Below, one piece after another: positions 4,113 to 58,032 of a stretch of 64,000 bases of DNA. Location: sequence record KP869105, one strand, 5' to 3'. Position 1 is the first letter of the stretch. Each line of letters starts with the position of its first letter. Made by a program: the position numbers and the translations under genes. Origin of the DNA: Escherichia coli O157 typing phage 7. The notes beneath the pieces were generated by a model. It searched no databases. It saw nothing but the letters and a program-made list of their open reading frames with translations, and was not told the origin of the DNA.

Positions 4113-5570
4113 ATGATTGAATTAAAAGATTTACCTTTTGTTGATAGCGTTCCTGGCGAAGGTCAGGAACGTATTTCATGGATTAAAAATGGTGAAGAAA
4201 TACTAGGAGCTAGTACTAAGTATGGAAACGATGGATCAATGAATAGACCAACTGTGTCCGTATTTAAAAATGTTGAGGTTCTTGATGAAAATATAGGAAT
4301 TCTTAAAACTGCCGTTGAAACATCACAGGAAGATATTAAAACAATTCAAGGCATTTTGGATGTATCTGGAGATATCGAAGCACTATCACAGATTAGCGTT
4401 AATAAAAATGACATATCAAATTTAAAGACGCTTACGAATGAACACACTGATATATTAAATGGTACAAATACTACGGTTGATAATATTCTTTCTGATATTG
4501 GTCCATTTAATTCGCAAGCAAATTCAGTTTATAGAACGATTAGAAATGATTTGTTATGGATTAAAAGGGAATTAGGACAATATGCTGGGCAAGATATTAA
4601 TGGTCTTCCTGTTGTAGGAAATAGCAGCACGGGGATGAAGCACCGTATCATTAATAATACAGATGCTATAACTTCCCAAGGAATACGTCTAAGTGATTTG
4701 GAAGAAAAATTTATTGAATCTGATGTAGGTTCACTGACAATTGAAGTCGGAAATCTTAGACAAGAACTTGGACAAAGACCATCTTCATTTAGTGAAAGCA
4801 TATATTCACGTGTGCATAATTTAGATCAATCACAGATTAATCTTAGTTCCGAAATTAAATCTATCAAAACTTCTATTGGATATCCAGGAAATACTTCAAT
4901 AATCACAGATGTCAATGTCAACAGTCAAGAAATTTCAGCTTTAAATGATGAACTAAATAAAAGTGGCGGCGTTAAACAGCGATTAACTGTTATTGAAACA
5001 TCGATTGGTTCAGATGATATTCCTTCTAGTATTAAAGGTCAAATTAAAGATAATACCACTTCTATTGAATCTTTAAATGGAATTGTAGGTGAAAACACCT
5101 CGTCCGGTTTAAGAGCTAACGTTTCATGGCTAAATCAGATAGTTGGAACTGATTCTAGCGGAGGTCAACCTTCTCCTCCGGGGTCTCTTTTAAATAGAGT
5201 TTCAACTGTTGAAACCTCTGTTAATAGACTTAACAATGATGTTCAAAACTTACAGGTTGAAATTGGTAATAACAATTCCGGAATTAAAGGGCAAGTTGTA
5301 ACACTAAATAAATTAGTAAATGGAACAAATCCGAATGGTTCAACTGTCGAAGAACGCGGATTGACTAATTCAATAAAAGCTAATGAGACTAACATTTCTT
5401 CAATTAATCAAGAGATTCGTAGTATTAAAGGTAATGTGTCCTCATTGCAGAGGGATGTCCAGACTTTACAAGAAGCTGGTTATATTCCTGAAGCTCCAAA
5501 AGATGGTCAAGCTTACGTTCGTAAAGACGGCGAATGGGTATTGCTTTCTACCTTTTTATCACCAGCATAA
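4113..5570 (+). CDS. wac: fibritin (whisker, neck fibre)
   Basis: 485 aa; long coiled-coil-like body and C-terminal foldon [27 protein letters not shown]. Confidence 0.95.
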
Positions 5571-5573
5571 CAT

Positions 5574-5587
5574 GGGCCGCAAGGCCC
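5574..5587 (+). other. GC stem-loop with GNRA-type loop after wac
   Basis: GGGCC-GCAA-GGCCC; no clear T-run, so not called a terminator. Confidence 0.4.
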
Positions 5588-5600
5588 TAAAGGATTTTAA

Positions 5601-7302
<1,702 letters not shown>

Positions 7303-54900: not shown

Positions 54901-55129
54901 ATTGTTCTTCCGTTAAAACAGTAATATCGTAGTAACAGTCAGAAGAAGTTTTAACTGTGGAAATTTTATTATCAAAATACTCACGAGTCATTTTATGAGT
55001 ATAATATTTTTTGCCATAAATGATAATAGGCTGATTTGGTCCTGGAACTTCTAACTCACTTGGATTAGGAAGTGTAAAAAGAACTACACCAGAAGTATCT
55101 TTAAATCGTAAAATCATATATCCTCGCAA
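54854..55129 (-). CDS. hypothetical protein (nrdA.2 position)
   Basis: 91 aa. Confidence 0.5.
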
Positions 55130-55137
55130 TAATAAAA

Positions 55138-55998
55138 TTACACCGCCATCTTTCCTTTAATAGGAGGATGTGATTCATAGTTGTTAAGAACAAAATTATG
55201 AGGCTTTGCAAATTGACTCAACCAAAATACCTGCGATTCTGTGTCCCATTCATCAAATTCATCTGGAAATTTTAATTGTAATTCGCATAAATCCATAGGT
55301 TCACGACATAAAATTTCTTTACATTGTTCTACGTGATTCATATAGATATGAGTATTACCACCAGAAAATATCAAATCTCCCGGAATAAGATTACACATCT
55401 TAGCTACAATATGAACTAACGTAGCATATGATGCAATATTAAATGGAAGACCGAGGAAAACATCTACCGAACGTTGATACCACTGAAGGTCAAGGTATCC
55501 ATTACGCACATTAAACTGATAGAACATATGACAAGGCGGTAATGCCATATATTTAAGTTCAGCTGGATTCCACGCAGAAACAATTTGACGCCTATCATTT
55601 GGCAGTTTTTTAATACGATCAATAACTTCTATAATTTGATCTACACCGCCAAAATCACGCCACTGTTTTCCATAAATTGGACCAAGTTCACCGCTATGGT
55701 ATCCTAAATCTTTTGCTTGATTTTCGTAATTTTCATCCCAGACTGTTTTGCCTTGAATTAATGAATCATGTTGAATTAATCGCAAATCATTGACATTTGT
55801 GCTTCCTGATAAAAACCATATTAGCTCAGCAATGCATGCATTCCAGGCGAGCTTTTTAGTTGTTACTGCAGGAAAACCTTTGGTTAAATCCCAACGCAAT
55901 TTAGTACCGAACAAAGCAATTGTTCCTGTGCCCGTTCGGTCATCGGTTTCATAGCCATTTTCAAAAATGTCTTTAATTAAATCTTGGTATTGTTTCAT
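55138..55998 (-). CDS. td: thymidylate synthase, uninterrupted
   Basis: 286 aa continuous ORF; TS active-site region [11 protein letters not shown]; no intron. Confidence 0.95.
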
Positions 55999-56043
55999 TT
56001 AGTACCTTATATAAATTATAATACATTTTATGAAGCTAAATAA

Positions 56044-56391
56044 TCAATACGGTTTAGCATCAAATTTTCTCTCAATTTCAGGCGTGAAATATAATTCTTT
56101 ACCGCGTTTGGAAAAGCGACCAATAATATGATAATTATTCTCATCAAACGTGATATTACCAATATCCATAGCTTTCAACCAAATATCGATATTTCTATCC
56201 AGCTTTATGTCAAAATTCCAATACGGAGAACTATTACCGAAAATACTACAAGCGGATTCAGTGAAACAACTGCTATAAATCTTGTCTTTAGGAACTACTA
56301 ATTGATAGACACCTTTAATAAACTGAGGACCCTGCCACTTTGGCTGTTTCTCATCTTTTTCTAATAGAATAGGGTAATAATTAAAATTCAT
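56044..56391 (-). CDS. hypothetical protein inserted between frd and td
   Basis: 115 aa ATG-initiated ORF with no recognisable motif; occupies a site where T4 frd and td overlap. Confidence 0.5.
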   Translation of the reverse strand: MNFNYYPILLEKDEKQPKWQGPQFIKGVYQLVVPKDKIYSSCFTESACSIFGNSSPYWNFDIKLDRNIDIWLKAMDIGNITFDENNYHIIGRFSKRGKELYFTPEIERKFDAKPY

Positions 56392-56410
56392 ATTTCCGCC
56401 GCGCGTTATT

Positions 56411-57369
<959 letters not shown>

Positions 57370-57422
57370 TTTTTAAAGCATTGCATAATAGAATTCATCA
57401 TTCATAAACTCAAATACAAAAA

Positions 57423-57782
57423 TTATATTATCTCCCATCGAAAAGGGTCAGGAGCATATCCGATAGAGTTAATCATTTTAACTAAAGTTACCATTCCTTT
57501 GTTAACTGCTTGTGCGATTTCATCAAAAACTTCATCGCTATCATCATAAAGGTCATTAAAAAGTTCTAACACGTTCTTCTGAACTTTTAATTTATGACCA
57601 ACAATCTCGCCTACAGTAAATTCGTTTCCGCCGATTCCAGTGTAAAACGTAATTACACCAGTTAACAGACTTTCGCGAGAATCTAGGTCATGTGATAAAT
57701 TAATATAAGCCATCCCGGGTGCAGTTTTAAGTTGGCAACGAATTCTTACTTGGGTAATTCCGGTTACATGAATGTCGGACAT
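57423..57782 (-). CDS. hypothetical protein
   Basis: Track ORF trimmed to ATG at 57782 (MSDIHVTGITQV...), preceded by GAGGAAA; 119 aa. Confidence 0.5.
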   Translation of the reverse strand: MSDIHVTGITQVRIRCQLKTAPGMAYINLSHDLDSRESLLTGVITFYTGIGGNEFTVGEIVGHKLKVQKNVLELFNDLYDDSDEVFDEIAQAVNKGMVTLVKMINSIGYAPDPFRWEII

Positions 57783-57792
57783 ATTATTTTCC

Positions 57793-58032
57793 TCACGCTT
57801 TCTTAGCGACTTTCCAGTCAGCTTTAAATTGGTCAACGTCAGAGTGATGAATCCAGAAACCAGATGAGCTACCATCTTCATAAAGAGGACAACCATCACA
57901 CTCATCTTCCCATCCCATATCACGTAAAAGATGTTCAGCTTTTTCAATGAGTTCAGAATCTTTACCGATGATATTAAAATACCATTTACCTCTAACTTCT
58001 GAATCTTTGATGCTCTGGCGTTGTAATCTCAT
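57793..58032 (-). CDS. hypothetical protein
   Basis: Track ORF trimmed to ATG at 58032 (MRLQRQSIKD...), preceded by GAGGAG; 79 aa; early promoter/stem-loop upstream. Confidence 0.5.
   Translation of the reverse strand: MRLQRQSIKDSEVRGKWYFNIIGKDSELIEKAEHLLRDMGWEDECDGCPLYEDGSSSGFWIHHSDVDQFKADWKVAKKA

Follow-up and report, generated by a model that had tools for sequence, protein, structure and literature searches.

In phage T4 the dihydrofolate reductase gene frd runs directly into the thymidylate synthase gene td, and the question raised by the present locus is why a further open reading frame stands between the same two genes in Escherichia coli O157 typing phage 7. The DNA analysed was a stretch of 64,000 nucleotides from this phage (sequence record KP869105), hereafter called the window, and the additional reading frame is referred to as X. 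An earlier note on this DNA had taken X for an accessory gene (moron) inserted at the frd-td junction. The T4 overlap from which that reading started was confirmed: it amounts to 4 nt, with td at 4236-6113 and frd at 6110-6691 of the T4 locus (L009). The coordinates of X, the 115-aa protein and the GC-rich nonamer upstream of it, all of which had been described before, proved correct on re-checking, and the non-coding flanks, previously put at about 65 bp, were measured as 64 nt in total (19 nt + 45 nt). The features of the interval are collected in Table 1.

Table 1 Features of the frd-td interval, in positions of the whole window
Feature	Position	Strand	Basis
frd, dihydrofolate reductase, 193 aa	56411..56992	-	ORF list; annotated frd in RB51 and T4
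Upstream copy of the 9-bp direct repeat, TAAATGAAA	56409..56417	-	Repeat scan, spacing 416
frd-ORF spacer, 19 nt, AATAACGCGCGGCGGAAAT	56392..56410	-	
ORF X, 115 aa, ATG start, protein begins MNFNYYPILLEKDEKQPKWQGPQF	56044..56391	-	ORF list
ORF-td spacer, 45 nt	55999..56043	-	
Downstream copy of the 9-bp direct repeat, TAAATGAAA, holding the td start codon	55993..56001	-	Repeat scan
td, thymidylate synthase, 286 aa, intronless	55138..55998	-	ORF list

The frd gene of the window was 96-99% identical to frd of RB51 and T4. Its TGA stop falls within the upstream copy of the 9-bp repeat. When this copy is extended to 12 nt with one mismatch it reads TAAATGAAATAA (56406-56417), and it includes the frd stop together with a two-codon relic, ATG AAA TAA. 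The frd-ORF spacer contains a weak Shine-Dalgarno-like GGCGGA and the GC-rich run GCGCGGCGG (56396-56404, minus strand), the latter being variable (GCGTGGCGG) among other Tequatrovirus copies. Downstream of td, in minus-strand order, come nrdA.2, nrdA.1 and nrdA. The I-TevI intron that interrupts td at codon 183 in T4 and Bas37 is absent from td of the window. The 601 bp around X were found to be 100% identical in the Tequatroviruses wV7, Sf23, ESH35 and 4E10. X is the equivalent of the genes RB32ORF229c, RB51ORF234 and bas37_0070, and its family is PHROG 1928.

Codon-level comparisons indicate that X is, almost beyond doubt, a genuine protein-coding gene under selection. The dN/dS values were 0.02-0.07 (about 0.05) at dS values of 0.3-0.9. 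Between the window and the Mosigvirus Shf125875, dS was 0.63 and dN 0.036, while for the window and locus L017 the values were 0.34 and 0.007, respectively. Purifying selection of this strength rules out a chance ORF, and X was likewise rejected as a decaying relic. The protein matched the PHROG 1928 profile with E = 3.1e-36 over residues 4-111 of 115 (profile positions 2-125 of 126); the family is labelled 'unknown function'. A tblastn search detected X in 563 phage records; identity was 90% or more in 362 of these and below 60% in 201. The earlier note had allowed that the ORF might turn out not to be conserved or expressed, and as regards conservation this large set of records speaks otherwise. 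No second copy of X was detected when the family HMM was run against all six-frame ORFs of the window. X is not a new gene and is not restricted to this phage: it is already known, being annotated in hundreds of public genomes, assigned to a PHROG family and dispensable in a close relative, and the window holds another copy of it.

About 360 Tequatrovirus and Mosigvirus records were found to carry X, including those of T2, T6, RB14 and RB51. RB32ORF229c, RB51ORF234 and bas37_0070 are the same gene as X (97-100% identity, position and flanks shared), and copies with this common position and these flanks were seen in wV7, Sf23, RB51, RB68, T2, T6, RB14 and Bas37. The RB51 and RB14 records annotate X as 'RB32ORF229c hypothetical protein', and in RB51 the GenBank note on the gene adds 'flanked by 9 bp repeat'. 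For the survey of the junction, the phage collection was probed with the T4 junction, and 60 of the matches were sampled at even rank steps. X was present in about 41 of the 60 (span about 717 bp), T2, T6, RB14 and RB51 among them. Another 12, including YUEEL01, held only a 68-aa ORF (span about 507 bp), which belongs to PHROG 9550 and is unrelated to X. Five were empty junctions of the T4 type (T4 isolates, vB_EcoM_112, HY03 and G28), and the remaining 2 were partial td records. The empty slot of T4 is thus one of three Tequatrovirus junction states, the other two being the 68-aa ORF only and X only.

Beyond these phages, homologues of X with 30-47% identity were found in the same frd-td slot of at least 7 other T4-like genera. 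The slot is occupied in Mosigvirus, Kanagawavirus (PEi20, Entb_45), Moonvirus (Merlin), Gelderlandvirus (UTK0003), Karamvirus (CC31), Roskildevirus (Cronus) and Bragavirus (Pm5461), in the Klebsiella T4-like phages Mexia and CP-p-KP-21072, in IMG/VR contigs and in two metagenomic contigs. At each of the 23 fetched loci with a homologue, frd immediately precedes it and td comes after it; Cronus, Pm5461, CC31 and two metagenomic contigs share this arrangement. The placement in Straboviridae is an empirical trait of the family and no curated definition. Most slots of other genera contain two tandem family members, a short X-like form and, directly after it, a longer second paralogue, X2 (PEi20 ORF-252, CC31p238, Merlin gp259). 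X2 shares the PHROG and the motifs QKxW, HG(I/L)Y and GRFxKxG...F with X, and is distinguished by its length of 115-139 aa and by a conserved PTIxxYKxxP stretch inserted behind the Trp. In some phages X2 is followed by a copy of the 68-aa ORF, and within the slot the stop codon of one gene overlaps the start codon of the next. X2 was absent from the window and from every Tequatrovirus/Mosigvirus locus examined. The number of extra genes in the slot ranges from 0 in T4 to 1-3 in other phages and up to 5 in one metagenomic contig. The frd-td interval can be described as a small variable slot.

A HMMER search of 1.84 billion representative proteins returned 40 matches, corresponding to about 37 real clusters. 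Two matches were repeat-protein artefacts and one was a fragment; the rest were small stand-alone proteins of 95-139 aa. The PHROG 1928 family is confined to T4-like phages and, wherever this could be checked, to this one slot.

The divergence of the genes was compared for 28 pairs drawn from eight genera. Identity was 27-44% for X, 43-66% for frd and 68-82% for td. X was less identical than frd in every one of the 28 genus pairs, so that no sign of recent transfer between genera can be recognized. In a Mantel test over the eight genera the co-divergence of X with frd and td was weak (rho 0.24-0.27, p about 0.1), the identities of X being saturated. Since the slot is occupied across genera, the occupied state appears to be ancestral and the T4 overlap derived, and the constant position of the homologues, together with the identities between genera, makes it very probable that X is native to the frd-td slot of T4-like phages infecting Enterobacterales. 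The ancestral order would have been frd, X (short form), X2 (longer paralogue), sometimes the 68-aa gene, and td, with overlapping stop and start codons. Different lineages would then have dropped different members of the slot, Tequatrovirus and Mosigvirus retaining only X.

When the T4 junction was aligned to the window, it was found to be the window minus 416 bp, as a clean difference. The flanks are the same in both, and many X-bearing phages match an 80-nt T4 probe at 100% in two pieces. The 416-bp segment is bounded by copies of TAAATGAAA, which agree at 11 of 12 nt when extended, and T4 retains exactly one copy. T4 classically loses DNA by deletion between short direct repeats, and the alignment suggests that the T4 state was probably derived by deletion. 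This direction is favoured because the empty junction is the minority state (5 of the 60 sampled), because the upstream spacer, with ATGAAATA and GGCGGAAAAT, is shared by Mosigvirus, because the closest outgroup contig has the arrangement frd-X-X2-td with overlaps, and because X shows no sign of recent movement between genera. In that contig X is 66% identical, and the GC-rich spacer of the window aligns to the overlap between the frd tail and the X start. T4 and a minority of its relatives would also have lost X, the most likely event being a deletion of 416 bp between the repeats that gave rise to the textbook frd/td overlap. Read in this way, the overlap is a lineage-specific deletion scar and not the T4-like ground state, which is a mildly new point.

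In lambdoid phages the term moron denotes an additional gene that brings a promoter and a terminator of its own and lies between genes adjacent in relatives. X resembles such genes in that it is additional and dispensable and separates two genes which adjoin each other in one well-known relative. It differs from them in having neither a terminator nor an upstream promoter-like site nor a compositional shift; moreover, most relatives and other genera too carry it at this position. No terminator-like sites were found in 55000-58000, and between frd and X no sigma-70-like site scored above chance. G+C was 0.28-0.34 across X compared with 0.30-0.41 in the flanks. The GC-rich stretch upstream of X had been regarded as atypical; it corresponds by homology to the old overlap between the frd tail and the ORF start in the closest outgroup and does not represent foreign DNA. 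The flanking genes are not adjacent in most relatives, 5 of the 60 junctions being empty and the slots of other genera being occupied. The proposal of an inserted moron is not supported, as T2, T6, RB14 and RB51 carry X at exactly the same position and phages of other genera have homologues in the slot. What survives of the proposal is that X is dispensable and that it is absent from T4 and other Tequatroviruses. The earlier note had also reasoned that a homologue of known function at this very position in the reference T-even genomes would count against it; homologues do lie there, and no published function was found for any of them.

The protein itself gave few leads from sequence searches. 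Pfam, NCBIfam and PADLOC yielded no match for X or for any of the 43 family members (for X, with E up to 1 in Pfam and PADLOC), which agrees with the previous impression that it has no recognisable motif. A PDB sequence search with two profiles returned noise only (E at least 0.046). An AlphaFold2 model based on the 43-sequence alignment reached a pLDDT of 91.8 and a pTM of 0.85; the pLDDT of a previous model from a 12-sequence alignment was 84. In the predicted fold, four strands (residues 6-12, 27-34, 48-50 and 62-64) are followed by a helix (68-77), a further strand (80-82) and a long hairpin (86-96/99-104). Structure comparison of the model revealed no significant neighbour, the weak best matches being mostly OB-fold nucleic-acid binders. 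Among structural classes the OB-fold nucleic-acid-binding domains (SSB, RPA, S1, Stn1, HIN), which are five-stranded closed beta-barrels with a helix between strands 3 and 4, come closest, with a weak likeness to the predicted protein, and the modelled fold is possibly a very divergent OB-like barrel. The family is phage-only, strongly constrained and without a structural relative in the PDB.

Across the 43 sequences W19, G91, K95 and G97 are invariant and Q16, G27, Y29, F93 and F102 nearly so; none of the conserved residues is an Asp, Glu, His, Cys or Ser. The family is mildly basic, with a median pI of 8.8, and this value and the conserved W19, F93 and K95 are no more than indirect hints of the binding of single-stranded nucleic acid or oligosaccharide that is typical of OB-fold proteins. 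On the model and the alignment, a non-enzymatic binder is the moderately favoured description of X, and nucleic acid specifically is a doubtful candidate for its ligand. X would be a mildly basic protein of about 13 kDa with a compact beta-rich fold and one helix, serving as a non-enzymatic binding module. Its QxKW loop and GRFxKxG hairpin might form a conserved aromatic/basic surface that binds nucleic acid or protein, an assignment of low confidence. A role as DNA mimic was rejected, the protein being basic and not acidic. The annotation 'glucose-1-phosphate adenylyltransferase', which X bears in one record, was also discarded, as the protein has no such domain and is of the wrong size. A search of the literature for RB32ORF229c, phrog_1928 or the T-even frd/td overlap found no reports, and the Petrov 2010 review and a 2025 accessory-gene paper contained nothing relevant to X.

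Experimental data bearing on X come from Bas37 (phage KarlGJung), whose gene bas37_0070 is 99% identical to it. In the HIDEN-SEQ transposon study (bioRxiv, doi 10.1101/2025.11.20.689424), 34 of the 36 TA sites of bas37_0070 were disrupted on E. coli K-12 and the gene was classed as 'Non-essential'. Relative to K-12, its log2FC was +0.40 on CFT073, +0.18 on CFE299, -0.09 on CFE303 and +0.16 on CFE331, with an adjusted p of 1 in each case. Insertions in td of Bas37 were depleted on K-12, with a mean count of 29-31 compared with 372 for X. This depletion was relieved on CFT073, CFE299 and CFE331; frd showed the same trend and X did not (doi 10.1101/2025.11.20.689424). No phenotype was evident for X on K-12 or on any of these four uropathogenic strains. 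Since the insertions in X were neutral and did not track td or frd, these data indicate that td and frd can function without X in the conditions of the study, which in turn weighs against an obligate role in thymidylate synthesis. The non-essentiality of bas37_0070 is the sole experimental datum found on the family.

Deletion in T4 has to be weighed against another history of the same repeats. The ancestor of Tequatrovirus and Mosigvirus may have lost the X/X2 array and then regained X from a related phage into a T4-like junction, by illegitimate recombination that duplicated 9-12 bp of the target (TAAATGAAACAA); T4 would then have retained the older empty site or lost X again. Such a local re-insertion, the nearest surviving form of the insertion idea of the earlier note, is considered rather unlikely. 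The repeat flanks the 416-bp segment exactly. Its upstream copy sits in 16-18 nt that are missing from the closest outgroup, between the frd end and the GC-rich stretch, and resembles a disabled td start (ATG AAA TAA versus ATG AAA CAA, with ATGAAACAA turned into ATGAAATAA); a duplication at insertion is a simpler account of this copy than a chance pre-existing repeat. However, ATGAAA is a common gene start in these phages, and the 68-aa ORF, through its start (ATGAGCAATAAA), is an equally good source of the relic, while the downstream copy is homologous, position for position, to the native X2-td junction of the outgroup. Both junctions of the window have spacers, in contrast to the overlapping genes of all other genera, and BYEP02 provides an example of sloppy recombination at the frd-td junction. 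Within Tequatrovirus the dS of X was 0.03-0.10 compared with 0.18-0.22 for frd and 0.4-1.1 for td, which could reflect a more recent spread of the X segment. Nevertheless, the block of high identity is not limited by the repeats, covering about 80 nt of frd on one side and about 100 nt of td on the other; the G+C of X is unremarkable as well. The donor would still be a T4-like phage with X at the same locus and not the source of a foreign gene, so that even under re-insertion X would be no moron in the usual sense. The short repeats around the segment and the patchy presence of X among close relatives would also fit a free-standing homing endonuclease or another selfish mobile gene. Genes of this kind abound in T4-like phages, I-TevI in the adjacent td being one of them, and the GenBank records of the BASEL phages label bas37_0070 and its relatives as 'putative homing endonuclease'. 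This identity is most improbable: no GIY-YIG, HNH, LAGLIDADG, PD-(D/E)xK or other Pfam match was found in the 43 members, which have no conserved acidic or His residue and, at 95-139 aa, are too small. The fixed position in all genera and the deep divergence between them also speak against it, as does the conserved block, which extends past the repeats into frd and td and does not form a discrete cassette. The label 'glucose-1-phosphate adenylyltransferase' on the same protein elsewhere shows that annotations of this gene are unreliable.

The constancy of the position also bears on a functional alternative, in which X is a working partner of the frd and td enzymes, acting as an adaptor or regulator of both, of the dNTP-synthesising complex, or of their translation. 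The gene lies invariantly between frd and td across at least 9 genera, mostly with overlapping start and stop codons that imply translational coupling, and the family is restricted to phages with both enzymes at this locus. Gene order is, however, conserved genome-wide in T4-like phages, so position is weak evidence. T4 and about 30% of the sampled Tequatrovirus junctions do without X, which moreover diverges much faster than td (27-44% versus 68-82% identity). In Bas37, insertions in X were neutral on K-12 and the four uropathogenic strains and independent of the td and frd trends. A partnership of this kind is hence judged improbable. Also improbable is the proposal that PHROG 1928 is a new fold family whose old placement between the dihydrofolate reductase and thymidylate synthase genes, often in duplicate, reflects a functional link. 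X might, for example, sense or sequester a nucleotide or a folate-related ligand, or shield the dTMP supply from a host system that neither K-12 nor any of the few uropathogenic strains tested possesses. If a functional link of this type were true, T4, the defining model of the dNTP-synthesising complex, would be missing a native component.

The overall reading that we prefer, with moderate confidence, is that X is a small binding protein without enzymatic activity, ancient and dispensable, whose gene is expressed together with frd and td. It would act as a conditional accessory factor of the host-specific or condition-specific fitness or counter-defence type and would not be required for thymidylate synthesis. 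An advantage limited to certain hosts or conditions would explain its strong conservation together with its repeated loss; the suggestion that X is conditionally useful comes solely from the conservation of its sequence. X is a reasonable and unexceptional candidate among the T-even unknowns that are screened for host-specific or counter-defence roles.

As to expression, X would be made pre-replicatively from frd-td-nrdA transcripts, by analogy with T4 and given that no terminator was found. The 45-nt ORF-td spacer was identical in all 8 Tequatrovirus loci compared, even where the dS of X was 0.34. It contains the td ribosome-binding site AAGG and, at 56013-56036, a MotA-type middle-promoter-like site facing td (GCTTCA-N10/12-TATAAT/TAATTT). 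Motifs of this type are over-represented in the window (22 versus 8.9 expected). From its sequence, the spacer probably provides td with a MotA-type middle promoter and a ribosome-binding site of its own. The RNA folds of both spacers were no better than those of shuffled sequences (z = +1.2 for the 19-nt frd-ORF spacer), and Rfam and tRNA scans of 55000-57500 gave no matches. The strand opposite X holds short ORFs of 33-57 aa and nothing longer.

X, the 115-aa ORF between frd and td, was not the only departure from T4 in this region. The T4 frd.1-frd interval consists of a 71-nt gap only, whereas two ORFs occupy it in the window; their counterparts are RB51ncORF236c and RB51ncORF237c. Between gene 32 and td, the window therefore differs from T4 in several small genes, X being one of them. 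A 68-aa ORF, instead of X, was the sole occupant of the frd-td slot in roughly one fifth of the Tequatrovirus records sampled. This ORF (PHROG 9550, MSNKLKVKDVP...) was also found directly ahead of td in Kanagawavirus and in one Klebsiella phage. Identity among loci L010, L013, L003 and L008 of related phages was 69-100%, a conservation far above that of X. Inserted between frd and X, Escherichia phage BYEP02 carries a second copy of the 3' end of frd, which has been annotated as an ORF of 32 aa. This copy is a Mosigvirus-like sequence variant and forms a visible recombination scar at the same junction.

Features of the frd-td region (L-numbers: loci of related phages, locus-internal coordinates)
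Feature	Location	Strand	Remark
td	55138-55998	-	window
X-td spacer, 45 nt	55999-56043	-	motif at 56013-56036
ORF between frd.1 and frd	56989-57369	-	no T4 counterpart
Second ORF between frd.1 and frd	about 57460-57820	-	no T4 counterpart
68-aa ORF	L010:448-654; L013:1648-1854; L003:2173-2379; L008:2148-2354
Duplicate of frd 3' end, 78 nt	L012:304-403		BYEP02; between frd and X
X, variant 3' end	L014:3340-3350; L017:3340-3350		Tequatrovirus alleles

The X-td spacer showed no variation among eight Tequatrovirus loci, and it contains a MotA-box-like GCTTCA followed by TATAAT/TAATTT. In Mosigvirus this spacer measures just 13 nt, and the MotA-box-like motif is missing from it. An I-TevI group I intron interrupts td after codon 183 in T4, in phage KarlGJung (Bas37) and in two IMG/VR relatives, whereas td in the window has no intron. 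Bas37 carries both X and the intron, T4 the intron only and the window X only; the two occur independently of each other.

The HIDEN-SEQ transposon-insertion data for bas37_0063-0071 (Extended Data Table 7; doi 10.1101/2025.11.20.689424) include the nucleotide-synthesis genes of Bas37. In these rows, insertions in td were depleted on E. coli K-12, those in frd, nrdA and nrdB less so. On the uropathogenic strains CFT073, CFE299 and CFE331 the depletion eased significantly (td log2FC +1.7 to +2.6). This suggests that the need for these phage genes varies with the host.

In some Tequatrovirus alleles the last codon of X is short by 2 nt, so that the protein ends in ...AKPLII* instead of ...AKPY* and the reading frame reaches 6 nt further into the spacer. 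The extreme C-terminus is thus not constrained. The sole multi-domain match to X was P0012, an NCBI protein of 195 aa in which an unrelated 145-aa N-terminal region is joined to the 50 C-terminal residues of an X homologue from a Klebsiella phage. This is no meaningful domain fusion; P0012 probably represents a deletion or assembly chimera.
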